A stretch of DNA of 64,000 nt. It comes from an uncultured Candidatus Saccharibacteria bacterium. Its GTDB lineage: Bacteria; Patescibacteriota; Minisyncoccia; Phycocordibacterales; UBA9973. The number at the start of each line of letters is the position of its first letter. The stretch's first letter is position 1. The stretch covers positions 1,732 through 65,731 of the forward strand of contig CAYREQ010000001.1 in assembly GCA_964423445.1 (NCBI GenBank). The letters run 5' to 3'. The position numbers and the translations under genes were made by a program. The notes beneath the pieces are model-generated. The model had not been told where the DNA came from. It did not search any database and worked only from the letters and a program-made list of their open reading frames with translations. Positions 11,595 through 58,485 of the stretch are shown here, piece after piece.

Positions 11595-11670
11595 ATTAAT
11601 AAAATATCAAAACTAAAAAATACAGCCTAAAAAGCTGTATTTTTTAGTTTTTTTATATTAAACTATTAAC

Positions 11671-14020: not shown

Positions 14021-15190
14021 ATGAAGCAAAACAAGCAAACAGTATTTGTGGGACTTTCAGGTGGGGTGGACAGCGCTGTGTCTGCCACTTTGCTAAAAAA
14101 TAGTGGTTATGAGGTAGTGGGAGTTTTCATAAAGACTTGGCACCCAGACTTTATAGAATGCAATGAAGAAGATGAAAAGAGAGACGCTATGCGTGTAGCC
14201 GCGTATTTAGATATACCATTTTTGACCCTAGACCTAGAAGATGTATATAAAAAAGAAGTCGCAGACTATATGATAAGAGAGTATGAAGCTGGTAGAACTC
14301 CAAATCCAGATGTCATGTGCAATAAGGAAGTAAAGTTTGGAGCGTTCTTAAAAAAAGCACTTTCTATGGGGGCTGATTTTGTGGCGACAGGGCATTATGC
14401 ACAGCGGGTACAGAAAAATTCTTCCGCTTTACCCGCAAGTGGGCTCCGACACGGACAGAATTTTTCTGTACCCGCTGTGCTGGGGAAAGGCGTAGACCCA
14501 AGCAAAGACCAAAGTTATTTTCTTTGGACTTTAAATCAAAAACAATTATCTAAAATTTTATTTCCTATTGGGCATCTAAAGAAGACAGAAGTTAGAAAAT
14601 TGGCGAAAAAATTTAAATTACCTGTAGCAGAAAAACATGATAGTCAAGGTATTTGTTTTTTGGGTGCGATTGATTTAAAAGAATTTTTAAAGCATTACAT
14701 AAAATCAAAGAAGGGCAAAGTTCTAAATACGGAAGGGGAAGTGATAGGTCATCATGATGGAGCTGTATTTCATACGCTCGGAGAAAGACATGGTTTTGTA
14801 ATTACTAAAAAGAGTCCAAATGATGGAGCTTATTATGTGGTAGCTAAAGATATAAAGAAAAATATTTTGGTTGTGTCGCAGAAAAATGAGAAAGATACTT
14901 TTTCTCAGTCGCTCGGTCCCTCACTGCGTTCAGCCACTCCTTCTAAAAAGCACATTTCTCATTTTTCTGTAGATTTGGAAAATCCAAATTGGATTTCAGA
15001 AATTCCACAAGAAAATAAAAACTACACAGCGCAAGTTCGTTATCATGGAGAATTTTTACATTGTAAAATTAAAATCAAAACAAAAGACAGTGCAGAGATA
15101 ATTTTTGAAAAACCAGTTTTGGTAGCGAGCGGTCAATCTATAGTAGTCTATGATGATGACATTTGCCTAGGTGGTGGAGTAGTTGTATAA
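14021..15190 (+). CDS. mnmA: tRNA-specific 2-thiouridylase MnmA, carrying an in-frame insertion of a repeat element
   Basis: PP-loop VFVGLSGGVDSAVSA; TGHYA and KDQSYFLW motifs; the repeat at 14399-14480 lies between these two motifs. Confidence 0.9.
   Translation: MKQNKQTVFVGLSGGVDSAVSATLLKNSGYEVVGVFIKTWHPDFIECNEEDEKRDAMRVAAYLDIPFLTLDLEDVYKKEVADYMIREYEAGRTPNPDVMCNKEVKFGAFLKKALSMGADFVATGHYAQRVQKNSSALPASGLRHGQNFSVPAVLGKGVDPSKDQSYFLWTLNQKQLSKILFPIGHLKKTEVRKLAKKFKLPVAEKHDSQGICFLGAIDLKEFLKHYIKSKKGKVLNTEGEVIGHHDGAVFHTLGERHGFVITKKSPNDGAYYVVAKDIKKNILVVSQKNEKDTFSQSLGPSLRSATPSKKHISHFSVDLENPNWISEIPQENKNYTAQVRYHGEFLHCKIKIKTKDSAEIIFEKPVLVASGQSIVVYDDDICLGGGVVV
14399..14480 (+). repeat. copy A of a GC-rich core element inside a perfect 24-bp inverted repeat, in-frame within mnmA
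   Basis: gcacagcgggtacagaaaaattct [tccgctttacccgcaagtgggctccgacacggac] agaatttttctgtacccgctgtgc; the core is related to the copies at 40724-40759 and 42300-42335. Confidence 0.8.
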
Positions 15191-24206: not shown

Positions 24207-24228
24207 AACATTTTCTAAAAAGAAAGTC

Positions 24229-24268
24229 AAAAAGGATATTTATTATAGTAATAAATATCCTTTTTGTT
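24229..24268. terminator. perfect 17-bp AT-rich palindrome aaaaggatatttatta-tag-taataaatatccttttt after rpsI
   Basis: Hairpin seen in the sequence, flanked by A/T runs on both sides (bidirectional). Confidence 0.6.
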
Positions 24269-27909: not shown

Positions 27910-27948
27910 ATCGCAGTATTTACGCCATGGCGTAAATACTGCGGGTTG

Positions 27949-30570: not shown

Positions 30571-32550
30571 ATGGAAATCCCAGAAGTACCCTTTAATAGA
30601 GAACTTACTTATCTTGGAATCACTACTTACCGAGATAAAAATCAGCTTTTTGGTATCAAGCGCAAAGATAGGCGTCAGCATGTATACCTACTCGGAAAGT
30701 CTGGTACAGGTAAATCTGTCTTGATGTTCAACATGATAATTCAAAACATCCAAAACGGGGATGGAGTTTGCCTTGTAGACCCGCACGGAGAAAACGTAGA
30801 AGCTGTCCTCTCTGCTATTCCTCCACATAGAATCAAAGATGTGATTTATTTCAACCCTGCTGATGCCGAGCACCATATTGGTTTCAATGTGCTCGAGCTA
30901 GTAGACCCACAGTATAAACATCTCGTGGCTTCAGGCCTCATGGGTATTTTCACAAAAATTTGGGCAAACGCATGGAGTGCTCGAATGGAATATATTTTGA
31001 ATAATACTATCTTGGCATTATTAGATACTCCAGGCTCTACAATGCTCGGTATTCCTCGTATGCTCGTAGACAAAGATTATCGTCAAAAAATAATCGCGAA
31101 TTTGAAAGATCCTGTCATCAAAGCTTTTTGGGTGCACGAATATGAAGCATGGCAAGATAAATTCCGAAATGAAGCTATCGCTCCGATTCAAAATAAAGTC
31201 GGACAATTTTTATCTACTTCTATAATCCGAAACGTAGTAGGTCAGCAAAAAAGTACGATAAATATTTTTGACATGATGAACGAAGGAAAGATTTTTCTTG
31301 TAAACGTATCAAAGGGAAGAATCGGTGAAGACAACTCAGCCCTACTTGGAGGTATGATAATTACAAAAATTCAGCTGGCAGCCATGGAGCGTGTGCGTAT
31401 ACCCGAAGATGAGAGAAAGGACTTTTATTTATATGTGGACGAATTCCAAAACTTCGTGACAGATGCTTTTGCTAGTATTTTGTCTGAGGCTAGAAAATAT
31501 CGGTTAAACCTGACAGTGGCACACCAGTACACAGCCCAGCTAGTGTCTGATAAGAGTACGGCTGTGCGCGACGCAGTCTTTGGAAACGTAGGTACTATGA
31601 TAGTGTTTAGAGTCGGCTCTGATGATGCTGAATTCTTGGAAAAAGAATTTGAACCAGAATTTACTCCGAGTGATATTGTAAATCTTCCAAACTACAAAAT
31701 ATATTTAAAATTGATGATAGATGGTATCACATCTCGTCCTTTTTCAGCAAAAACATTGCCACCTATGGTAAAGTCTGGAAATAAAGAAATAGAAGATGCT
31801 GTTATAAATTCTTCTCGTGAGCTTTACTGTAGGTCCAAAGAAGACGTGGAGAGGGAAATAAATGAATGGAGTGGTATGTCTTTAGGTAGTGATACAGATG
31901 GACTAGGTATGGCTACAGGCATAGCAGGGAAATTTCCAGTGATATGCTCTATTTGTAAACAAGAGAGGACTGTTCCTTTCAAACCTGAGCCAGGCAGACC
32001 TGTGTATTGTAAAGATTGTATAGCTAAAATAAAATCTGGCGAGCTGAAACCAATCAAGGGCTCTATAAAACAAATCAACCAAGACCAAGATAAATTTTTC
32101 AAACCTTTGGCCGATCTCGGCATAGAGTTTACTGTAAAAGCCCCAACAGGTACAAAAGAAACTAGGGCAAATGAAGACAGATACCCAGAGAGACAAGACA
32201 ATCACACAGAAAATAAAATAATTCCTAAAAAGAAACCAGCACCTAATCTAGGATTAAAAGAAGCATTGAAAAAAGTTTTTTCTATACCAAAAGCTCCTGC
32301 GCCTACTCCCGCTCCAGTAGTACAAAGACCAGAGCCAGAGCCTGTATCATTGGATGTTTTAAAAAATAAAATAAAAGACATAGTTCCACAAAAAGACAAA
32401 TCTGCAAGTACAGAAGATAAAGATAAATTAAAAAATTTAATAGCCGGAGTCACACCATCAGCTGAAAAACAGGGAACTGAGCCACCACTAACAGCTGGAA
32501 ACATAAAAGAAGTACCCGAAGACGTACTGAGAAAAATTCTAGAGGAATAA
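30571..32550 (+). CDS. P-loop ATPase of the FtsK/HerA/VirB4/VirD4 (type-IV coupling-protein-like) superfamily, with a C-terminal zinc ribbon and Pro-rich tail
   Basis: Walker A LLGKSGTGKS, then CLVDPHGE; Walker B YLYVDEFQNF; TVAHQY..QL; C-terminal CSICK...CKDC; no TM helices. Confidence 0.6.
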   Translation: MEIPEVPFNRELTYLGITTYRDKNQLFGIKRKDRRQHVYLLGKSGTGKSVLMFNMIIQNIQNGDGVCLVDPHGENVEAVLSAIPPHRIKDVIYFNPADAEHHIGFNVLELVDPQYKHLVASGLMGIFTKIWANAWSARMEYILNNTILALLDTPGSTMLGIPRMLVDKDYRQKIIANLKDPVIKAFWVHEYEAWQDKFRNEAIAPIQNKVGQFLSTSIIRNVVGQQKSTINIFDMMNEGKIFLVNVSKGRIGEDNSALLGGMIITKIQLAAMERVRIPEDERKDFYLYVDEFQNFVTDAFASILSEARKYRLNLTVAHQYTAQLVSDKSTAVRDAVFGNVGTMIVFRVGSDDAEFLEKEFEPEFTPSDIVNLPNYKIYLKLMIDGITSRPFSAKTLPPMVKSGNKEIEDAVINSSRELYCRSKEDVEREINEWSGMSLGSDTDGLGMATGIAGKFPVICSICKQERTVPFKPEPGRPVYCKDCIAKIKSGELKPIKGSIKQINQDQDKFFKPLADLGIEFTVKAPTGTKETRANEDRYPERQDNHTENKIIPKKKPAPNLGLKEALKKVFSIPKAPAPTPAPVVQRPEPEPVSLDVLKNKIKDIVPQKDKSASTEDKDKLKNLIAGVTPSAEKQGTEPPLTAGNIKEVPEDVLRKILEE

Positions 32551-32554
32551 AATT

Positions 32555-34012
32555 ATGCCAAAACCAAATCGAGTACAAATAATCAAATATGGTCCACCGC
32601 CACCAGAGCTTCCAGTCTTTGGTAAAGTAAAACCCGAAGAGGTTTCTTTTATTGGGCGTACAAATTATGTGGCTTCTCTCGAGGAGAAAAAATTCGTTTT
32701 TGGTATAAAGCGCATAGATAGGAGAAGACACCTATATATCATAGGAAAGTCTGGAGTAGGAAAGACAAAATTGATGGAGCTTTTTTTACGCCAAGATATT
32801 TCTTATAATCATGGACTTTGCCTGATTGACCCACACGGAGATGTGATAGATGCGATGCTCGATTATATTCCAAGAGAGCGTATAGAAGATGTGTGCATGA
32901 TAGACCCGACAGATGTAGACTTTCCAGCATCTTTCAATCCGCTTGCAAACGTAGATCCGCTTTTTAAATTTCAGCTCACCCAAGGCCTAATCGAGGTATT
33001 TCAAAAGCAATTCGGTGCAAATTGGACACCTAGACTAGAGCACGTATTTCGTTTTACTTGTCTGGCGCTCTTGGATTACCCACATGCGACAATGCGCGGA
33101 ATGATTTCAATGCTGACTGACAGAAATTACAGACAAAAAGTAGTGGAATATATTACTGATGACATGGTAAAGAGATTCTTTGCTATAGAATTCGCTGATT
33201 GGTCTGAAAAATTTGATACAGATGCTATTATCCCACTCGTAAACAAGCTCGGGCAATTCCTCTCTGACCCACTACTCCGAAATATATTTGGACAAAAGCA
33301 AAACAAAATAGATATTTCAAAATTGATGAATGAAGGAAAAATCATTTTGATAAACCTTTCAAAGGGTCGCCTCGGAGAAGAGAATTCTAGTTTCCTAGGC
33401 TCTATGTTTTTGACAAAAATCAAACAAGCCGGAATGGAGCGGGCGAGTATACCCGAAAAAGATCGTGTAGATTTTTATCTTTATGTAGACGAGTTCCAAA
33501 ACGTCGTCACAAATACTTTTGAAAATATCTTATCCGAGGCGCGTAAATATGGACTAAACCTCACCATTGCTCACCAATATGTAGGACAGCTAATTCCAAA
33601 AGTTCAGCAAGCGGTCCTCGGAAATACTGGAGCACTCATATGCTTCCGTGTGGGTGGTGAAGATGCAGTAAAATTAAAACCAGAGTTTGCCCCAATATTC
33701 GATGTGAAAGATATGATAAATTTGGCTGTCGGAGAAATTTATATCAAGATGACAATAGATGGAGAATCTTACGACCCATTTTCTGCTGAGACTTTAAAAA
33801 TTCTTCCACCGACACATCCTTCATATAGAGAAGAAATAATAGCAGCATCTAGAAGAAAATATTCTATATCAAAGGATGATGCAGCAAAATTGATAGCCGA
33901 AGAAGAAGCTACTATCATCCGAAGTGCTGAAGAAAAGAAAATAATTGAAGGAAAAACAAAAGACAATGTGAATAGTTCTCAGTCTTCACAAGAAGCTGAA
34001 CCTATGATATAG
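32555..34012 (+). CDS. paralogous P-loop ATPase of the same FtsK/HerA/VirD4-like family (tandem duplicate, shorter)
   Basis: IIGKSGVGKT, CLIDPHGD, YLYVDEFQNV and TIAHQYVGQL are collinear with the upstream gene (roughly 40-45% identity by eye). Confidence 0.6.
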   Translation: MPKPNRVQIIKYGPPPPELPVFGKVKPEEVSFIGRTNYVASLEEKKFVFGIKRIDRRRHLYIIGKSGVGKTKLMELFLRQDISYNHGLCLIDPHGDVIDAMLDYIPRERIEDVCMIDPTDVDFPASFNPLANVDPLFKFQLTQGLIEVFQKQFGANWTPRLEHVFRFTCLALLDYPHATMRGMISMLTDRNYRQKVVEYITDDMVKRFFAIEFADWSEKFDTDAIIPLVNKLGQFLSDPLLRNIFGQKQNKIDISKLMNEGKIILINLSKGRLGEENSSFLGSMFLTKIKQAGMERASIPEKDRVDFYLYVDEFQNVVTNTFENILSEARKYGLNLTIAHQYVGQLIPKVQQAVLGNTGALICFRVGGEDAVKLKPEFAPIFDVKDMINLAVGEIYIKMTIDGESYDPFSAETLKILPPTHPSYREEIIAASRRKYSISKDDAAKLIAEEEATIIRSAEEKKIIEGKTKDNVNSSQSSQEAEPMI

Positions 34013-40057: not shown

Positions 40058-40087
40058 AAAAAAACCACTCGAGAGAGTGGTTTTTTT
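40058..40087. terminator. bidirectional terminator aaaaaaccactc-gaga-gagtggttttttt between rplU and recR
   Basis: Hairpin with A-runs and T-runs on opposite sides. Confidence 0.65.
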
Positions 40088-40700
40088 ATTGCCTATTTTT
40101 TAGGGCATTTTTTAGAGTGTCGTTGTCAGAGTATTCTAGCTCGGTGCCGGTGGAAAGACCTTTGCCTAATGATGATATTTTTATGTTTTGTTTTTCTGCA
40201 ATATCTTTTATTTGTTCGCGGACATATTGGTCAGTATAGTCACCTTGAGGGGACAATGAAAAAGCTATGATTATTTCTTGTAACCCACCAGAGGCAGACG
40301 AGATTTTCTTTTTTAATTCTTCAATACGTACTCGGCTTTTGGTATTTTTTTCTACTATCGGCACCAATCCACCCAAGATAAAATATTTTCCATTATAAAC
40401 TCCACTTTTTTCTACGCTCTCTAGGTCCGAATCTTTTTCTACTATCATGAGAGTACTCGCATCTATGTTTGGATTACTACAAATCTCACAGATAGTACTT
40501 TTTGTTTTTGTATTTAAAAAGAATTTATAACATTCCTTACATTGAGATACTTCTCTTTTCAGCTCCAAGACGAGCTTGCTCAAGCTTTCTGCATAGTTTG
40601 GATTTTTAAACATCAGGAAATAAACAAAACGCCTTGCTTGACGCTCCCCAATACCTGGAAAATCTTTAAATACTTCAGTTAATTTGTCTATTATGTCCAT
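40086..40700 (-). CDS. recR: recombination protein RecR
   Basis: C4 zinc finger CKECYKF...CEIC and a Toprim domain; 204 aa. Confidence 0.9.
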   Translation of the reverse strand: MDIIDKLTEVFKDFPGIGERQARRFVYFLMFKNPNYAESLSKLVLELKREVSQCKECYKFFLNTKTKSTICEICSNPNIDASTLMIVEKDSDLESVEKSGVYNGKYFILGGLVPIVEKNTKSRVRIEELKKKISSASGGLQEIIIAFSLSPQGDYTDQYVREQIKDIAEKQNIKISSLGKGLSTGTELEYSDNDTLKNALKNRQ

Positions 40701-40706
40701 AACTTT

Positions 40707-40776
40707 ATAAGTATAGCAAAAATTCGCCGCTTTACCCTAAAGGGCTCCGACACGGACTCATTTTTGCTATACTTAT
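40707..40776 (+). repeat. copy B of the GC-rich core element: 36-nt core inside a perfect 17-bp inverted repeat, between the recR start and the dnaB stop
   Basis: ataagtatagcaaaaat [tcgccgctttaccctaaagggctccgacacggactc] atttttgctatacttat. Confidence 0.85.
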
Positions 40777-40780
40777 CTTA

Positions 40781-42205
40781 CTAGAATTCATCTAAATCAC
40801 CACTAATTTTTGATGGTGAAAATTCACTTAGGTTGCTCTTTTCAAGGTTTAGGAAAGTAGTAGTCTTTTCATCAAAGTACAATTCTACTTTTCCTGTCGG
40901 ACCATTTCGGTGTTTTTCTACTAGGATTTCAGCGATATTTGTCTTATCCATGGCATCTTTTCCTTTGTCTTCACGGTGGATAAACATTACTACATCGGCA
41001 TCCTGCTCGATTGATCCAGAGTCACGGAGGTCAGACAGTCTTGGTCGTCCACCACGAGATTCTACTGCACGAGAGAGCTGTGACAGTGCAAGCACTGGAA
41101 CATTTAGCTCTTTTGCTAGGCCCTTTAGTGAGCGAGATATCTCAGTGACTTGGTTTACCATAGAGTCATAATTTTTACTTGTAGTCATCAGCTGGAGGTA
41201 ATCTACCACGATTAGGTCCACACCTTTTTCTGCTTTGATTCGGCGTGCTAGAGATTTCATTCGAACGATAGAATTTCCAGCTTGGTCGTCAATAAATATT
41301 TTTGCTTTAGCGAGCTTGTCCAGTGAATCACGAAGTTGAGAAAATTCTCTGTCTGATGAAAGATTTCCTGTACGTAGGTTCCATGCGTTTACTCTAGATT
41401 GTGCTGAGAGCATTCGGTCTACGAGTTGTTGTGAAGACATTTCGAGAGAGAATATAAGTACAGACTTGTCGTGGTTTACAGCAGCTAGTCGTGACATGTC
41501 TAGGGCGAGGGTAGTCTTTCCCATACTTGGTCGAGCAGCGAGAATAATCAAATCAGAATCTTGAAAACCAGACAGCATAGAATCCAAATCTTTAAAACCA
41601 GTAGGTAGACCGCGAAGCATACCTTTGTTTTCGTGAAGTTTTTCCAAGCGTTCATAGGCTTCACCGAGTTCATCCTTTAGGTTTACAAATTTTTGATTTT
41701 TTGGACTTGAGACTACACTAAAAATTCTTTTTTCTGCCAAATCTAAAATATCATTCATGTGGTCGTCGCCCTCTTCAAAAGCAAGCTCGGACACATAGTC
41801 TGCTGCTTCAATTAGACTTCGAAGGACATATTTTTTTTGCACGATATCGGCATAGTGTTTTACGTTTGTAGAAGATGGCACAGTGTTTACTATCTCAGCT
41901 AGGTATTGATTTCCACCTATATTGTTTAGCAACTTTTGCTCACTCAATTTTGTAGAGAGCGAGAGCATATCTATAGGCTCGTTCTTTGAAGACAGATCAA
42001 GCATAGCCTTAAAAATAATTTTATGTTTTTCAGCATAAAAAGAATCAGGAGTAATCATGTCTTCTACCTCGTGCATAGCGTCTTTGCGTAGCATTATAGA
42101 TCCGAGTACTGCTTGCTCTGAAGGCATACTCTGTGGTGGTAGTCTCAAATTATTTTGTCTTGGTTTTTGTACGTCGTTTCTTCTATTGTTTTCTCCTTTT
42201 ACCAT
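40781..42205 (-). CDS. dnaB: replicative DNA helicase DnaB
   Basis: Walker A ARPSMGKTTLAL; DYLQLM; the RecA-like C-terminal domain plus the N-terminal helicase domain. Confidence 0.9.
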   Translation of the reverse strand: MVKGENNRRNDVQKPRQNNLRLPPQSMPSEQAVLGSIMLRKDAMHEVEDMITPDSFYAEKHKIIFKAMLDLSSKNEPIDMLSLSTKLSEQKLLNNIGGNQYLAEIVNTVPSSTNVKHYADIVQKKYVLRSLIEAADYVSELAFEEGDDHMNDILDLAEKRIFSVVSSPKNQKFVNLKDELGEAYERLEKLHENKGMLRGLPTGFKDLDSMLSGFQDSDLIILAARPSMGKTTLALDMSRLAAVNHDKSVLIFSLEMSSQQLVDRMLSAQSRVNAWNLRTGNLSSDREFSQLRDSLDKLAKAKIFIDDQAGNSIVRMKSLARRIKAEKGVDLIVVDYLQLMTTSKNYDSMVNQVTEISRSLKGLAKELNVPVLALSQLSRAVESRGGRPRLSDLRDSGSIEQDADVVMFIHREDKGKDAMDKTNIAEILVEKHRNGPTGKVELYFDEKTTTFLNLEKSNLSEFSPSKISGDLDEF

Positions 42206-42281: not shown

Positions 42282-42353
42282 AGCAGGTAAAGTAAAAATT
42301 CGCCGCTTTACCCTAAAGGGCTCCGACACGAACTCATTTTTACTTTACCTGCT
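42282..42353 (+). repeat. copy C of the GC-rich core element: core differs from copy B by 1 nt, inside a perfect 18-bp inverted repeat, between the dnaB start and the trpS start
   Basis: agcaggtaaagtaaaaat [tcgccgctttaccctaaagggctccgacacgaactc] atttttactttacctgct. Confidence 0.85.
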
Positions 42354-42373
42354 CTACATGATAAGATATTATC

Positions 42374-43324
42374 ATGTCTAAAAAGGTATTATTGTCAGGA
42401 GTAAAGCCTACAGGTCGCCCACATCTGGGCAACTATTTTGGTGCCATGAAGCAATTCGTGGATTTATCATCAGATTACGACAGTTATGTATTTATTGCTG
42501 ATTATCACGCACTCAATTTTATACAAAACAAGGAAGAGATGAGAGAAAACATAATCGGGGTTTTGCTCGATTATTTAGCTGTAGGTCTCGATCCAAAAAA
42601 AGTTTGCATATTCAAACAAAGTGATATTTCTGAACACACAGAGCTGGCTTGGATTTTTGATACTATCACTACTATGCCATATCTCATGCGTGCACATGCT
42701 TTCAAAGATGCAGAAGCTAAAAATAAAGAAATCGTAGTAGGTACTTTCAATTATCCGATGCTGATGGCTGCAGATATCTTACTCTACAGTCCAGACATAG
42801 TTCCAGTAGGTCAAGATCAGCAACAACACGTAGAAATCACTAGAGACGTAGCTCAAAAGTTCAATAATACTTTTGGAGAAGTTTTTAAATTACCAGAACA
42901 TAAAATAATGAAAGAAGTAGCCGTAGTTCCTGGTACAGACGGACAAAAGATGAGTAAAAGCTATAACAATACTATTCCACTCTTTGCTGAATATGAAGAA
43001 ATAAAAAAAGCTGTGATGGGCATAGTCACAGACTCAAGCGGAGATATTCCAAAAAATGTTTTTGCCATACATAAACTCATCCGACCAGAGGCTGAACTCG
43101 CTCCAATATATGAAGAAAAAAAGGGTAGCTACAAAGAACTAAAAGAGCTACTAATAGAAGACTTGGAAAAATTTATAGCTCCAATGCGAGAAAAGAGAAA
43201 AGAATTTGAAAAAGATATTCCGAGCGCACTAGCAATACTAAAAGCCGGTGGAGAAAAAGCTAAAGCTGTAGCTAATGCAAAAATGCAAGAAGTTCGCGAA
43301 AAAATTGGAGTTAGTGTATATTAA
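42374..43324 (+). CDS. trpS: tryptophan--tRNA ligase
   Basis: HIGH-type motif TGRPHLGNY and KMSKS. Confidence 0.9.
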   Translation: MSKKVLLSGVKPTGRPHLGNYFGAMKQFVDLSSDYDSYVFIADYHALNFIQNKEEMRENIIGVLLDYLAVGLDPKKVCIFKQSDISEHTELAWIFDTITTMPYLMRAHAFKDAEAKNKEIVVGTFNYPMLMAADILLYSPDIVPVGQDQQQHVEITRDVAQKFNNTFGEVFKLPEHKIMKEVAVVPGTDGQKMSKSYNNTIPLFAEYEEIKKAVMGIVTDSSGDIPKNVFAIHKLIRPEAELAPIYEEKKGSYKELKELLIEDLEKFIAPMREKRKEFEKDIPSALAILKAGGEKAKAVANAKMQEVREKIGVSVY

Positions 43325-49151: not shown

Positions 49152-49196
49152 GACGTCACTTTAGCAGACTAAAGTACTTTAGTCAACTAAAGTGAC
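49151..49196. promoter_or_regulatory. composite palindromic operator TGACGTCACTTTAG-CA-GACTAAAGTACTTTAGTC-AA-CTAAAGTGAC, directly upstream of the YerC-like gene
   Basis: Four ACTTTAG/CTAAAGT half-sites in mirror symmetry, seen in the sequence; lies between the regulator and the divergent small ORF. Confidence 0.55.
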
Positions 49197-49358
49197 GGGT
49201 AGGGGTGTGGAAAACTTTAGCTGAGTAAAGTAGAGATATGGAGTAGAGGGGTAGGAGCGTGGAGGCATGCTTGACTTTTTGCTTTTTGTATGATATTTTA
49301 TTTTTGGATATATGCTCGTGGTATTTCCAAATTTAATTAACTTGGAGACAAAAAAACA

Positions 49359-49496
49359 ATGAAAAGACCAATCTTGTTTGGTTTACTTTTAGATGAAGAT
49401 GGCAACATTTTGACGACCGCGGCCACGACGACGGCAGGCGATCCGAATTTTAACATCAGCAACGATTTCGGCGGCGGCGTCGGCACCGGTGCGTAA
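49359..49496 (+). CDS. candidate small peptide (45 aa), with an atypically GC-rich 3' half
   Basis: GGAGA ribosome-binding site; translation MKRPILFGLLLDEDGNILTTAATTTAGDPNFNISNDFGGGVGTGA; could equally be part of a structured RNA. Confidence 0.35.
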   Translation: MKRPILFGLLLDEDGNILTTAATTTAGDPNFNISNDFGGGVGTGA

Positions 49497-49614
49497 CTAT
49501 CGCCGATCTCCGGCGAAACAAGGGAGGGGAGGAAAGCCTCCCCCGACAATCAAAAGCCATTGAGGCAATTCAACGAATTAGCTTTAATGGCTTTTTCTAT
49601 TTGTGTATAAAAAT

Positions 49615-49651
49615 AAAACCCTCGGAATTTTCTTTGAAAATTCCGAGGGTT
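49615..49651. terminator. perfect 13-bp hairpin ccctcggaatttt-ctttg-aaaattccgaggg, bidirectional
   Basis: One of five consecutive hairpins between 49501 and 49683. Confidence 0.6.
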
Positions 49652-49673
49652 GATTTGTAAGTAGCTATGATGG

Positions 49674-49892
49674 CTACTTTTTACTTGGAGCTTCTACGAG
49701 GGTAGTACGCTTTATCTTTACACAAGGATGGTACCAAGAACCATCAGGCCTTTTATAAATGACGTCATTACCCTTTGTCGCCCTGCATCCGCAAGGCAAC
49801 GTAGGAATACGTGATGAGACCGTCATCTCATCTCGCGTCTTGGTTCTACGTGCAAACCAAGCTTCGAAAGACAATTTTTCATTCATAGTCAT
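49674..49892 (-). CDS. small Cys-containing hypothetical protein (72 aa, CGC...HPC)
   Basis: Strong AAGGAG ribosome-binding site; this ORF is moderately GC-rich. Confidence 0.5.
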   Translation of the reverse strand: MTMNEKLSFEAWFARRTKTRDEMTVSSRIPTLPCGCRATKGNDVIYKRPDGSWYHPCVKIKRTTLVEAPSKK

Positions 49893-50130
49893 ATCTCCTT
49901 AAAGAACAAAATACCAGCCTTTTTAAAAGACTGGTATTTGAGTTGTGTTTATTGAATAGTTTATATTTACAGCACAAAAATCAGCCTTCTAATTTTGTTT
50001 CGAAAGCTAAATACATAACTGTTTAAATTTTTCGCTGTTTTTACCATATATTTACATTAACAAAATGTATAAGTATTTGCAATTTGTTACACTTTCTTTT
50101 AAAAACTAGCAGTAAAAATTCCTTAATAAT

Positions 50131-57194: not shown

Positions 57195-57410
57195 ATGGCA
57201 AACACGGGAGAAGATGGCTCAATCTCTGAGCCTTTGGATTCAACTTTGGAACTCTCACCAACGGGTGACGAGTCGGCACTGGACATTGATTCAGGCGTTT
57301 TCAAAAAGTTTGATGGCAACCCGGCAAAACCGGACCTGCCATCAGTAGAACAGCGGGCTGCTTTTCATGCTCGTGGAGGCTGGCGACCATCAGGTGGCCG
57401 TAAAAAATAG
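57195..57410 (+). CDS. small hypothetical protein (acidic N-terminus, basic C-terminus), GC-rich
   Basis: Strong GGAGG ribosome-binding site; 71 aa; first gene of a compositionally distinct three-gene operon. Confidence 0.45.
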   Translation: MANTGEDGSISEPLDSTLELSPTGDESALDIDSGVFKKFDGNPAKPDLPSVEQRAAFHARGGWRPSGGRKK

Positions 57411-57421
57411 GAGGAGATGTA

Positions 57422-57778
57422 ATGCCGGAACCTGTCTTGTCGGCTTACCTACGAAAGGCTGGGAATATTGCAATTCTTGACCTTTCTGGGAAGATAACCA
57501 TGGGAGAAGGAGCTGTACGTCTCCGCGTCGAAGTCCGGAGACTTTTAAACGAGGGCTGGAATAAAATCTTGCTTAATTTTGAGCAAGTAAAGTCTGTCGA
57601 CCTTTCTGGTGTTGGCGAAATAAAACTTTGCATTAACTGTGCCGAAAAAGAAGGCGGTGAAATGAAAGGTGAATTTGCTGTAAACATCAAAGATGTCGGA
57701 GAGCTTACTAGGCTCGTTTCGACGATTGACTGTTTCCGGTCCGAGGCGGAAGCTTTATGCTCTTTTAGTGTAAAATAG
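57422..57778 (+). CDS. STAS-domain protein (anti-sigma-factor antagonist, SpoIIAA-like)
   Basis: ILDLSGKITMGEGAVRLRVEVRRLL...ILLNFEQVKSVDLSGVGEI; AGGAGGAG ribosome-binding site. Confidence 0.7.
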   Translation: MPEPVLSAYLRKAGNIAILDLSGKITMGEGAVRLRVEVRRLLNEGWNKILLNFEQVKSVDLSGVGEIKLCINCAEKEGGEMKGEFAVNIKDVGELTRLVSTIDCFRSEAEALCSFSVK

Positions 57779-57787
57779 GGGAAAAAA

Positions 57788-57991
57788 ATGACAAAACGTG
57801 ATAAGCAGTTGCGCAAGCAACGCAGGGCGTATAAAAAACGCTTGAAGGAAAGGATGAAAAATGGCGAAGGCAAAGGCCCGAGCCAGACGCCTTCGCCTTA
57901 CGGCTATAGTCGTAAGGAAGGTCGAGGGCAATCCTCCGCAGGCGATGACTACCGTGGTAGCTGGCGTGCCGGTAGATACGGAGTGTTCTAA
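57788..57991 (+). CDS. small highly basic hypothetical protein (67 aa, RK-rich)
   Basis: Ribosome-binding site GGGGAAAAAA; GC-rich; followed by a strong terminator. Confidence 0.45.
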   Translation: MTKRDKQLRKQRRAYKKRLKERMKNGEGKGPSQTPSPYGYSRKEGRGQSSAGDDYRGSWRAGRYGVF

Positions 57992-58018
57992 ACACAAAAA
58001 TCGAGCTTAAGCTCACAG

Positions 58019-58060
58019 GAATAGCCAGGTGTCTAGGAGGACACCTGGCTATATTAATTT
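58019..58060 (+). terminator. 12-bp hairpin atagccaggtgtc-ctaggagg-acacctggctat plus an AT-run
   Basis: Seen in the sequence. Confidence 0.6.
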
Positions 58061-58112
58061 TTGCCATTTTTTGAAAAATAATATAATATATAGAAGTCCA
58101 TTTATTACATAT

Positions 58113-58170
58113 GGCCCTATCGTCTAACCAAGTTAAATACAGTGGACGTGGTCTTTTTTGAAAATGCAAA
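58113..58170 (+). pseudogene. tRNA-Glu 5' fragment / degenerate partial duplicate
   Basis: ggccctatcgtctaac (58113-58128) is identical to the first 16 nt of tRNA-Glu at 58216; GACGTGG is also shared; there is no T-arm. Confidence 0.4.
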
Positions 58171-58215
58171 GGGTATATAAATGAGACAAAGTGTTTAATT
58201 GTAAGTAAATAGTTT

Positions 58216-58287
58216 GGCCCTATCGTCTAACGGTTAGGACGTGGCCTTTTCAAGGCTAAAATCAGAGTTCGATTCTCTGTAGGGTCA
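58216..58287 (+). tRNA. tRNA-Glu (anticodon TTC), no encoded CCA
   Basis: Acceptor GGCCCTA/TAGGGTC (one G-U pair); D-arm CGTCTAACGGTTAGGACG; anticodon loop TTTTCAA; T-loop TTCGATT. Confidence 0.8.
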
Positions 58288-58335
58288 CAAATACTAAAAA
58301 AGAGTCCACTACTGGGCTCTTTTTTAGTATTTGTG
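58288..58335 (+). terminator. long hairpin caaatactaaaaaagag-tccactactgg-gctcttttttagtatttg after tRNA-Glu
   Basis: Seen in the sequence. Confidence 0.55.
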
Positions 58336-58485
58336 AAGACGGAGGCATAATTCGTGAGTACACGAATAGCCGAGTCCGGGTCTGGAAAATTTTCTTTTGA
58401 CGAAAAGAAAATTATTGTGGACCACGTAAAAAAAGAACCGCCTGAGAACGCGGTTCTCAGGCGGGGTTTTGTGACTGATTTATGT

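Follow-up and report, generated by a model that had tools for sequence, protein, structure and literature searches.

Judged by sequence comparison, the palindrome in the mnmA gene studied here belongs to a hairpin population that is widespread in housekeeping genes of Patescibacteria. We consider it probable that it is a copy of a non-autonomous, selfish, RPE/REP-like hairpin element that is common in these bacteria and is moved by a putative mobilising enzyme. The host of the hairpin is a Patescibacteria bacterium. Patescibacteria (CPR) are ultra-small, their genomes are among the smallest and most streamlined known, and little mobile DNA is presumed to be present in them. In the searchable literature we found no description of such hairpin elements in Patescibacteria housekeeping genes.

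Two hairpins in the mnmA gene

The essential gene mnmA (tRNA 2-thiouridine synthase, a tRNA-modifying enzyme) was assigned by the Pfam domains PF03054, PF20259 and PF20258 in its homologues. The protein aligns with solved MnmA structures (E = 3e-81), and the gene order DUF8128-YceG-MnmA-MgtC-AlaS is kept in relatives. The original prediction for the window, i.e. the whole stretch of 64 kb that was analysed, described, inside this gene, a GC-rich core of 34 nt that is enclosed by a perfect inverted repeat of 24 bp. The repeat was reproduced at the same coordinates (Table 1): its arms, GCACAGCGGGTACAGAAAAATTCT (14399-14422) and AGAATTTTTCTGTACCCGCTGTGC (14457-14480), are 24 nt long, 100% complementary and separated by 34 nt. 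The chance expectation for an inverted repeat of 24 nt at the composition of the window is about 1.4e-7 per 64 kb. As had been claimed, the reading frame of 389 codons stays open through the hairpin, and the stem proposed for the mRNA agrees with the predicted fold of the 82-mer as RNA (-50 kcal/mol, z = -11). Against our covariance model R1 the hairpin scores 77.7 bits (E = 3e-21).

The core 16-mer GGGCTCCGACACGGAC is present three times in the window (positions 14441, 40742 and, with one mismatch, 42318), a number reached in 0 of 100 shuffles. The extended core could be aligned across all three sites, in agreement with the two further core copies that had been postulated. Copy 2 takes up the 80-nt spacer that separates the upstream ORF 40086..40700 from dnaB (stop at 40781), and is antisense to both. 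Copy 3 is located within the divergent spacer between dnaB and the ORF 42374..43324, by inspection a putative tryptophanyl-tRNA synthetase gene.

Table 1. Hairpins in the window and their parts.
Feature	Position	Strand	Remarks
mnmA (tRNA 2-thiouridine synthase)	14021..15190	+	389 codons, intact ORF, two hairpin inserts
Family-1 hairpin, MnmA hotspot A	14399..14480	+	82 nt, perfect stem, protein residues 127-154
Upstream arm, site A	14399..14422	+	outer GCACAG overlaps native A-Q codons
Apical module, site A	14423..14456	+	conserved, GC-rich; linker T, P2, internal loop, P3 (alignment A3, pair counts)
P2, site A	14424-26 (CCG) with 14452-54 (CGG)	+	invariant in alignment
Internal loop, site A	14427-31 (CTTTA) / 14444-51 (CTCCGACA)	+	
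P3, site A	14432-35 (CCCG) / 14440-43 (TGGG)	+	loop CAAG
Downstream arm, site A	14457..14480	+	exact reverse complement of upstream arm
Inferred 75-nt (25-codon) unit, site A	14405..14479	+	RVQKNSSALPASGLRHGQNFSVPAV; putative boundary, by analogy with other copies
Family-2 hairpin, MnmA hotspot B	14879..14969	+	unrelated to family 1; residues 287-317
Outer arms, site B	14879-14893 / 14955-14969	+	15 nt perfect, then 5-nt mismatched bubble
Inner arms, site B	14899-14903 (TTTTT) / 14945-14949 (AAAAA)	+	
GC-rich core, site B	14904-14944	+	
Family-1 copy 2	40707..40776 (core 40724-40759)	+	own 17-nt perfect arms; 72.5 bits
Family-1 copy 3	42282..42353 (core 42300-42335)	+	own 18-nt perfect arms; 66.8 bits

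Comparison with orthologues identified the segment as an insertion, as had been expected. Four close MnmA proteins (P0014, P0048, P0057 and P0066) read 'HYAQNKKN-SL.KG' at this position (site A) and carry no insert, the window protein being 20 aa longer, while other orthologues contain different insert families at the same site in protein and DNA alignments. The estimate of about 16 extra amino acids was too low, the excess over the shortest orthologues amounting to 20 aa. Family 1 is represented at site A in frame 1, in frame 0 and in the opposite orientation, and families 2, 3 and 6 are found there too; this variety of families, frames and orientations indicates that the site was hit independently more than once. 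For the copies in opposite orientation an origin by spacer inversion was not supported, as their linker sub-family is a different one.

A second hairpin in the same gene, at site B, had been missed by the original prediction. Its family-2 core recurs at site B of L209; L193 carries it at MnmA site A and L128 within LigA. On the alignments, the two MnmA sites are hotspots that have been hit repeatedly by several unrelated core families. Both inserts model as disordered surface loops: the AF2 model shows residues 133-148 and 290-312 as coil between beta-strands, with pLDDT < 50, and in solved MnmA structures site A, which is a variable loop in MnmA generally, forms a beta-turn.

Distribution and anatomy of family-1 hairpins

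We collected 80 distinct copies of the family-1 core by exact match to 23 core bases, a selection that favours young or conserved copies and inflates the apparent conservation of the core. They stem from Saccharibacteria and Paceibacterota genomes and from groundwater metagenomes. The covariance model gave 95 matches in 705 kb. Scanning a genome collection with the bare 16-mer was unspecific (9 true copies among the 120 matches listed, most of the others being chance matches in GC-rich genomes), and viral contigs scanned for the family-1 core gave 0 matches. In a clustering of hairpin loops by k-mers, A/T-rich k-mers and the bias of the loci towards family 1 drowned out the signal; families were instead defined from MnmA and RluA protein alignments. 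The claim that the core is a dispersed repeat held true in many Patescibacteria genomes and genes, and the mnmA segment was not encountered in orthologues devoid of the core.

Fifty-three of the 80 copies are located inside ORFs of ≥180 codons, in all frames and both orientations and always stop-free. The host ORFs include MnmA, class-I aminoacyl-tRNA synthetases (aaRS), LigA, CCA enzyme, RluA, UvrA, UvrC, BipA, RNase HII and PheT. Four readings of the element result in recurrent peptides (AALPASGLRHG, SRFTLKGSDTD, SPLYPQAGSDTD and VRVGARLRVKR). A variant with TAAA has stops in two + frames and is found in ORFs solely in its open frame. Old copies decay: some RluA orthologues retain the arms together with a diverged core, and the copy in L213 scores only 39 bits against the covariance model.

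Family-1 hairpins are composed of a conserved GC-rich apical module of 31-37 nt, an inner stem of an A-run and a T-run, and a fast-diverging, yet strictly co-varying, stem of about 20 bp. Within the module P3 is 100% paired across copies by four types of pairs (GC, UG, AU and GU), and in the arms both sides are changed at 15 of 18 pairs. Unrelated copies have about 10 nt of arm sequence beside the core in common; the outer 10 nt or so are locus-specific yet complementary.

At the base of the hairpins a short tag was noticed that lies beyond the stem at unrelated loci; its 5' form is (GC)TTC, its 3' form T(T/C)C(GC). TTC is flush with the stem in 17 of 80 copies (background 2.3%), and a basal bubble TTC / T(T/C)C closed by G-C pairs is present in at least a quarter of the copies. 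Of 22 copies with a TTC..TYC tag pair, 13 span exactly 75 nt although their cores measure 31 or 33 nt, and 16 of the 22 tag-to-tag spans are divisible by 3. A family-2 copy carries the same TTC/TYC tag, and CTAC (GTAG on the other strand) was seen in L115, L137 and L173 only. In addition, direct repeats of 2-3 nt are in excess at the hairpin ends. Target-site duplication was rejected as their origin: the end repeats are tags of the element and no duplicated target, because the same TTC, CTTCG or GCTTCGC recurs at unrelated loci and because they differ (TTC versus TCC) where the arms are perfect.

By analogy with these copies the unit in mnmA would comprise 75 nt. Taking it out leaves HYAQ joined in frame to LGKGVDPSKDQ, and the base following it, 14480, is the first of a native CTG (Leu) codon. 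However, at MnmA site A a 75-nt unit does not reconcile with the orthologues, because the shortest of them keep 15 aa, which puts the net excess of the window protein at 19-20 aa.

Mismatches in the arms differ between the strands: 46 are of the A.C type on the + strand and 10 of the G.T type (p = 1e-6), i.e. they are compatible with wobble pairing on the minus strand. Intergenic copies show the same bias, whereas the wobbles of P3 lie on the + strand, in conflict with this bias. Selection for mRNA folding was rejected as the cause of the perfect stems, since G.U pairs are not enriched on the mRNA strand and intergenic copies are equally biased.

Origin of the hairpins and competing explanations

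The original prediction held that the upstream arm encodes conserved MnmA sequence (HYAQRVQ) and that the downstream arm looks like an inverted duplicate of this native flank, made at insertion. Of the peptide, 'AQ' is conserved in orthologues and the rest is not. A duplication of the flank was also our initial working model. Three observations favour a mobile core whose downstream arm arises by fold-back copying of the upstream flank: roughly 10 nt per arm are private to a locus yet complementary, the outer upstream arm in mnmA lies on conserved native codons at both sites (HY/AQ at site A, VS/QKN at site B), and the net excess at site A corresponds to roughly the core plus one arm. The overlap of the outer arms with native AQ and QKN indeed fits a flank-derived arm better than the insertion of a whole hairpin. 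We dropped the model after alleles of RluA had shown indels of whole hairpins. Filled RluA proteins have 249 aa and empty ones 224 aa, a difference of exactly 25 codons that corresponds to both arms plus the core; the empty site reads aaa-aat-ttt and lacks either arm, so that the arms there are not native flank. Furthermore, arms of 16-17 nt are common to the unrelated genes for MnmA of the window, an aaRS (L160) and a CCA enzyme (L135), the inner 17 nt of the mnmA upstream arm (GGGTACAGAAAAATTCT) recurring in the copy within the L160 class-I aaRS gene, and unrelated loci carry the basal TTC/TYC tag beyond the stem. What stands of the earlier claim is that the two arms depend on each other and that in mnmA the upstream arm overlaps native HY/AQ codons with its outer 6-7 nt; as an account of the hairpins, flank copying appears unlikely to us.

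The closest pair of filled and empty RluA proteins is about 80% identical. Within one population no presence/absence polymorphism was found, and mobility of the hairpins is for this reason deduced from their distribution.

An arm is more similar to its own partner (identity 0.90) than to the partner in an orthologue (0.73; Mann-Whitney p = 1.2e-5, 4 orthologous series), and lineage-specific compensated changes are seen in the arms of orthologous copies. By these sequence comparisons the evolution of the two arms is concerted, a pattern that template switching during replication would produce. Such switching at quasipalindromes has been described to result in perfect arms, compensated changes of several nucleotides and possibly spacer inversion in coding DNA, and it extended arms from 5 to 16 bp in yeast REG2 (PMC8604942, PMC8794818). 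With these quasipalindromes (Ripley-type) our hairpins share the homogenisation of arms within a copy. Template switching is, however, a mutational process and no element, and leaves the dispersal of the core to new loci unexplained.

For the selfish element that we favour we propose the following course. New copies would arise by insertion of whole hairpins, the likely targets being palindromes of an A-run and a T-run, for instance AAAAATTTT (Lys-Asn-Phe codons). Selection would purge copies that break the frame or the fold, favouring lineages that are 3n long and stop-free. After insertion, polymerase template switching between the arms (quasipalindrome correction) would maintain their complementarity and may sometimes extend it into the flanks. 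In-gene copies, commoner than intergenic ones, reside in surface loops of essential housekeeping proteins and would be read in any stop-free frame or orientation. The core of the mnmA copy departs at two positions from the consensus of its sub-family, yet the stem is flawless at 24 bp and reaches into native codons, for which template switching between the arms is the proposed reason. The overlap of the mnmA arm with native codons fits a later templated extension or homogenisation and not a one-step duplication. Most likely the insert does nothing useful and adds a disordered tip to a beta-hairpin.

The constant distance of about two helical turns between module and tag, the tag common to families 1 and 2, and the strand-asymmetric mismatches hint at a structure-specific enzyme that would act on only one of the strands. 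With low probability, the hairpins may not be passive RPE-like fossils but substrates of a candidate enzyme which would recognise the apical module on one single strand, measure about two turns of stem irrespective of its sequence and cut or join at the basal TTC/TYC tags. They might then represent a minimal 'hairpin transposon' with several core families, whose 25-codon unit would have evolved for life in coding sequence; as a variant, the same geometry might direct precise excision from DNA or RNA, making the insertions reversible. Pfam detected no transposase, reverse transcriptase, HUH or recombinase domain in 30 ORFs of the window (from about 26-64 kb and a few elsewhere), and phmmer with an approximate IS608 TnpA query found no IS200/IS605-type protein among 1,861 ORF segments from 770 kb.

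The conserved module, the basal tag and the measured stem could also mean a host function. The hairpins would then be RNA or single-stranded DNA signals under selection (for processing, regulation, recombination or DNA uptake), with the conserved loop and the tag as the putative protein-binding part. The apical module is near-identical across the class-level divergence between Saccharibacteria and Paceibacterota, the distance to the conserved basal tag is constant at about 20 bp, P3 and the arms covary, and wobble-type mismatches are tolerated strand-asymmetrically, all of which would suit such a function. It is at odds with the erratic presence of hairpins among orthologues, with families that replace one another at the same site and with the decay of old copies. 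Hairpins occur in any frame and orientation in unrelated proteins, the intergenic copies lie at promoter, terminator and spacer positions alike, and the density in the window is low (about 3 per 64 kb). Rfam gave no fitting family for the element, the whole window or two GC-rich, ORF-poor stretches; the element itself had sub-threshold matches to generic hairpins (miRNA precursors) only, and window-wide two tRNAs alone reached the gathering threshold. A function for the host is therefore, in our opinion, doubtful.

We regard it as improbable that the hairpins are classical MITEs, deletion derivatives of an IS that are moved by its transposase via terminal inverted repeats under formation of target-site duplications. 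Like MITEs (Correia, ERIC, BOX, RUP) they are small, non-autonomous, hairpin-forming and dispersed, have inverted repeats, do not code on their own and show the excess of short direct repeats at their ends; bacterial MITEs are occasionally found in frame within genes (PMC10969869). But MITEs are characterised by conserved terminal inverted repeats and target-site duplications, whereas the termini of our hairpins, the arms, are their least conserved part and the end repeats are tags with the same motif at unrelated loci. Neither an IS with matching ends nor a transposase was found in the scanned ORFs of the window or in the 770 kb sampled.

Excision of the hairpin from the mRNA, intron-like or in the manner of 'SOS splicing' triggered by the paired arms, would yield an MnmA protein without the insert. 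Removal at the RNA level triggered by paired inverted repeats has a precedent in animals (PMC12779559), the stem is long and perfect, and a unit length that is a multiple of three would keep the frame. The copies in ORFs are, however, all stop-free, the TAAA variant being held to its one open frame, and this constraint counts against splicing because it would be needless if the hairpins were spliced out. In addition, indels in old copies of RluA orthologues preserve the frame, no curated intron, ribozyme or other Rfam RNA model matched, and intergenic copies exist; we judge this explanation very improbable. That the segment is an ordinary lineage-specific variable loop, or an artefact of assembly or amplification, has next to no probability left despite the general variability of site A in MnmA, as the same 34-nt core with locus-specific stems recurs in many genes and in independent assemblies from many projects, which already refutes it, and the chance expectation of the repeat is about 1e-7.

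Relation to known elements and significance

The resemblance to Rickettsia palindromic elements that had been pointed out holds at the level of kind. RPE-1 to RPE-10 are elements of about 150 bp inserted in frame into unrelated housekeeping genes of a bacterium with a reduced genome; they encode a recurrent peptide that is tolerated on the protein surface, and several families coexist per genome (PMC10969869). The hairpins described here are likewise dispersed in-frame palindromes with recurrent peptides in more than ten housekeeping families, and those in the MnmA model are located at the surface and compatible with the fold. Their hosts are Patescibacteria and not Rickettsiales, and at about 75-82 nt they have roughly half the size of an RPE. 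They are set apart from the description of RPEs, which are conserved along their length, by what is conserved, namely the apical module of 31-37 nt and a basal tag of 3-5 nt, while the stem varies by locus.

Tagged REPs (GTAG/CGTC) mobilised by RAYT are believed to move as single-stranded DNA, with an HUH tyrosine transposase making the cut at the tag (PMC3733652). Common features are the intragenic location (UvrA, UvrC, LigA and RNase HII are among the hosts here), the fixed distance of a basal tag and perhaps a different behaviour of the two strands. REPs, in contrast, are 20-40 bp long and rich in GC over their whole length, and their stem is conserved while the loop varies, whereas the present hairpins measure about 75 nt and combine a conserved loop with a variable A/T-rich stem. 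Their tags are CTTC / T(T/C)CG instead of GTAG/CGTC, and no RAYT was found in the 770 kb of DNA sampled with the approximate query. Yeast mitochondrial GC clusters are comparable GC-rich hairpins of an organelle, and perfect hairpins within translated genes are known from the AT-rich reduced genomes of Nematomorpha (PMC6649704). Both cases concern organelles of eukaryotes, and in Nematomorpha both arms encode conserved protein and no mobile core is shared.

For annotation and phylogenomics the finding means that selfish DNA may account for the 'CPR-specific insertions' of variable length in marker proteins. With respect to protein evolution, a DNA hairpin in a beta-turn would give rise to a longer protein beta-hairpin. 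For replication and repair, it suggests that long perfect palindromes are tolerated in Patescibacteria and even kept perfect. To the biology of mobile elements it adds an architecture in which the loop is conserved, the stem is free but fixed in length, a tag marks the base and the unit comprises 25 codons, with no known transposase in the DNA sampled. Cultivable Saccharibacteria gain a concrete element that can be tested. Essential enzymes of Patescibacteria such as tRNA synthetases, DNA ligase, UvrABC and MnmA appear to be dotted with very small hairpin insertions, which undergo turnover at hotspots.

In-frame hairpins at two sites of MnmA

The inverted repeat with a 34-nt core originally noted within mnmA was reproduced when arms and spacer were re-measured (see table); at window composition such a repeat is expected by chance about 1e-7 times per 64 kb. 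The Pfam architecture of its homologues identifies the surrounding ORF as MnmA, and it matches solved MnmA structures with E = 3e-81. Folded as RNA, the 82-mer reaches -50 kcal/mol (z = -11). A 16-mer of the core occurs three times in the window, which was equalled in 0 of 100 shuffles, and the three copies can be aligned over about 36 nt. Fifty-four copies of this hairpin element, referred to as family 1, were used to build a covariance model; in the window it recognised three copies and no more (67-78 bits), with all other scores ≤22 bits. The core of the mnmA copy differs at two positions from its sub-family consensus (linker T; GCAAGT in P3), and 17 nt of its arm are common to the family-1 copy in an aaRS gene (locus L160).

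The proteins nearest to the window MnmA come from Patescibacteria assemblies (Paceibacterota/Nomurabacteria-type), and the gene order DUF8128-YceG-MnmA-MgtC-AlaS is kept in relatives. Aligning 30 orthologues (71-84% identity) revealed two hypervariable hotspots, sites A and B. Four orthologues without the core (P0014, P0048, P0057, P0066) carry just 'AQNKKN-SL.KG' at site A and lack the extra segment; such empty alleles retain 15 residues here, the window protein having a net excess of 20 aa. Removal of 75 nt (14405-14479) joins HYAQ to LGKG with the frame kept. The outer upstream arms overlap native codons (A-Q at site A, Q-K-N at site B). Among the remaining orthologues the hotspots hold eight or more unrelated peptide families, several of which recur at either site and across lineages; at site A, each of the three closest filled relatives has an insert family of its own. 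The family-1 core at this site is read in frame 1 in the window, in frame 0 in three other loci (L127, L164, L175) and in opposite orientation in two (L099, L136), which indicates repeated events at one hotspot.

A second element occupies site B of the window. Its core belongs to an unrelated hairpin family, family 2, and is a core that L209 also has at site B, L193 at MnmA site A and L128 within LigA. Family-1-like outer arms (CAGAAAAATGAGAAA) surround the family-2 core with inner arms of its own and a mismatched bubble; this architecture suggests nested insertion or core replacement. In relatives, the 'empty' site B (L207 ~1450-1500, L208; also L127 and L175) contains short core-less palindromes, in L207 ATTCTGGTATTC-tcaa-GAATACCAGAAT, which may be traces of elements since lost, or sites at which new ones land. 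We infer that hairpins were inserted at the MnmA hotspots, partly deleted and re-colonised.

Both inserts (residues 133-148 and 290-312) are predicted as coil with pLDDT below 50 in the AlphaFold model of MnmA (mean pLDDT 68), and solved structures have a short beta-hairpin turn at the position of insert A, in line with a predicted loop location. The arm-encoded residues beside insert A lie in strands 128-131 and 152-155 of the model. Alignment-invariant residues are retained, including the cysteines of NPDVMCN and QGICF, the catalytic pair of MnmA. As modelled, the inserts are most likely a tolerated surface extension.

Features of the window, MnmA insertion sites and gene families carrying family-1 copies
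Feature	Position	Description	Basis
mnmA ORF	14021..15190	389 codons, intact; encloses hairpin 14399-14480	
mnmA hairpin arms	14399-14422 / 14457-14480	24 nt each, 100% complementary, 34-nt spacer	
Second mnmA element	14879-14969	Site B; family-2 core	
MnmA site A		Between TGHYA and L.KG.DPSKDQSYFL	Orthologue alignment
MnmA site B		Between VSQ and NTNWISEIP	Orthologue alignment
Class-I tRNA synthetase (IleRS-like by inspection)		12 family-1 copies	ORF clustering, Pfam
MnmA		6 family-1 copies	ORF clustering, Pfam
LigA		5 family-1 copies	ORF clustering, Pfam
CCA-adding enzyme		5 family-1 copies	ORF clustering, Pfam
RluA-type pseudouridine synthase		5 family-1 copies	ORF clustering, Pfam
UvrC		4 family-1 copies	ORF clustering, Pfam
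UvrA		4 family-1 copies	ORF clustering, Pfam
BipA, RNase HII, PheT		Further family-1 hosts	ORF clustering, Pfam
Loop-less palindrome	27912-27943	Perfect, 32 bp, CGCAGTATTTACGCCA followed by TGGCGTAAATACTGCG; between two convergent ORFs, one with a PaaX_M (Cas2-like) domain	
Core-less A/T-rich hairpins	11600-11660, 58285-58336, 24228-24266	Intergenic, long; arms 27, 24, 18 nt, loops 3-7 nt; one directly after tRNA 58216-58287; weak covariance-model scores, via stems only	
Coupling-protein ATPases	30571-34012	Two adjacent, VirD4/TraG/TrwB-like; dnaK and dnaJ on either side	
GC-rich regions	49165-50130, 57350-58200	Up to about 65% vs 36% genome; no Pfam-matching long ORF, no Rfam match	

Distribution and anatomy of the family-1 element

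Scanning metagenomes with a two-block pattern of 23 bases and adding the usable genome-scan matches gave 102 matches representing 80 distinct family-1 copies, so that the core is not confined to this window. Wherever the host is named, it belongs to the Patescibacteria (six Saccharibacteria MAGs, two Paceibacterota, one 'Patescibacteria group'), and a scan of viral contigs returned no family-1 core. With the covariance model 95 copies were detected in 705 kb of Patescibacteria DNA, old diverged copies among them. An artefact is ruled out by the independent assemblies from which the copies come, and an ordinary variable loop by the same DNA being present in many genes. Within a single Saccharibacteria MAG locus (L062:1799-3800) three copies lie in about 2 kb, one nested in a second, outer palindrome.

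More than half of the copies (53/80) are located within ORFs of 180-1,214 codons, which group into few, repeatedly hit host families; these housekeeping genes are occupied in frame and without stops. Translation of the core uses three frames of its own strand, and copies in opposite orientation are translated as well. Its TAAA-loop variant has stops in two of its frames and is confined to the open frame within ORFs. This pattern indicates that the inserts are read through and that disruptive copies are removed by selection.

The apical module consists of a linker, an invariant P2 (CCG/CGG), an invariant asymmetric internal loop (CTTTA / CTCCGACA) and P3 (CCC..GGG). Extension and loop of P3 are variable (TAAA, GCAAGC, ACAAGT, TCTCTACGG, AGAGTACTG, GGCGTACCG and others) with pairing still at 100%; one P3 pair occurs as GC (20), UG (14), AU (4) and GU (1). 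A median of 19 nt are paired in the stem; only the ~10 nt adjacent to the core (A-run/T-run, e.g. CAGAAAAATTCT) are common to copies in unrelated genes. About 10 further stem nt are locus-private yet complementary, with at least 8 such nt in 55/80 copies, and 15 of 18 stem pairs are changed on both sides.

In many copies the stem is bounded by a basal tag, (GC)TTC on its 5' and T(T/C)C(GC) on its 3' side, the two forming a 3x3 bubble with closing G-C pairs. TTC directly abuts the stem in 17/80 copies vs 2.3% background (p = 4e-12). Where both tags are present (n=22), their distances to the core are 20-21 and 19-20 nt. From tag to tag, 13 of these measure exactly 75 nt with cores of either 31 or 33 nt, the stem making up the difference, and in 16/22 the span is a multiple of three, intergenic copies included (p = 2e-4, the copies not all being independent). 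The tag was also found beside a family-2 copy, so the two families probably share one machinery. Short direct repeats at the hairpin ends are this tag and not a target-site duplication, since they are identical at unrelated loci and read TTC vs TCC in copies with perfect arms.

The cleanest comparison of filled and empty sites is provided by RluA. Empty alleles (P0166, P0227, P0238) read KR(L/F)-K-N-F-TYLEV, encoded by aaa-aat-ttt, and are without either arm, whereas filled alleles read aag, GCTTCGTGTGTTCAAAATTTTT-core-AAAAATTTTGAACACACCGTGCC, t-ttt. The proteins have 224 and 249 aa, a difference of exactly 25 codons. The site is a short A/T palindrome, presumably the insertion target. Many more distant RluA orthologues retain the arm-encoded peptides around a diverged core, indicating that this insertion is old and vertically inherited. 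Other RluA segments of variable length (alignment A4: P0149, P0127, P0231, P0234, P0162), e.g. PASTRGGSPASSSLDGSTRGG, STLGGSASGG and LPLTKGEEKRGG, look by sequence like further insert families at additional sites.

Concerted arms and strand asymmetry

Between orthologous copies with the same site, frame and flanks the arms differ at several positions, with a matching change in the partner arm every time (L164/L175/L127; L099/L136; the aaRS series; RluA L176). Across these four series the left arm matched its own right arm at 0.90 vs 0.73 for the orthologue's right arm (p = 1.2e-5), which argues against independent decay after a single insertion. Other orthologues show plain decay with 3-4 mismatches per 22-23 nt. 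Template switching would keep the arms in concert and thereby account for the flawless 24-bp stem in mnmA around an already diverged core.

Among 92 arm mismatches in the 80 copies, 50 are A.C/C.A on the core + strand and 11 G.T/T.G; after de-duplication 46 vs 10 remain (p = 1e-6; by locus 23 vs 3). The bias is equally present in intergenic copies (21 vs 4), so selection on the host mRNA is not the cause. It is thus the minus strand on which the mismatches are compatible with wobble pairing; there the basal bubble would be purine-rich (GAA/GRA) and predicted folds are more stable. By contrast, the P3 wobbles are on the + strand. This hints at a strand-specific single-stranded phase, which might involve either strand.

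Relation to known elements

Rickettsia palindromic elements measure ~150 bp and comprise ten families with 44 integrations, nearly half of them in-frame (PMC10969869). They are closest in kind to the family-1 element, bearing out the proposed resemblance across lineages; size and host lineage differ. REP-type palindromes with tetranucleotide tags are also close: they too occur inside replication/repair genes, encoding 20-30 aa, and single strands of GTAG REPs are cut by RAYT transposases (PMC3733652). The family-1 element has neither GTAG/CGTC tags nor conserved stems. In MITEs the ends are conserved, whereas here it is the outer part of the stem that is locus-private, and the terminal repeats and target duplications that define MITEs are lacking. 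The element differs from each of these families in defining features, namely size, conserved stem, tag or host lineage.

No Rfam family matched the element, and we did not find such elements described for Patescibacteria in the full-text literature searched. By Pfam, 30 window ORFs (~26-64 kb and a few elsewhere) contained no transposase, reverse transcriptase, HUH or recombinase domain, and a heuristic query returned no IS200/IS605-type protein in 770 kb. Any enzyme or active strand is putative.

The element is set apart by the conserved loop, the free, co-varying stem of fixed length, the basal tag and the 25-codon unit, as well as by several families sharing hotspots with no transposase found in the DNA sampled. 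The distribution of the element and the turnover at hotspots suggest that it is mobile, and it would be neutral for its host.
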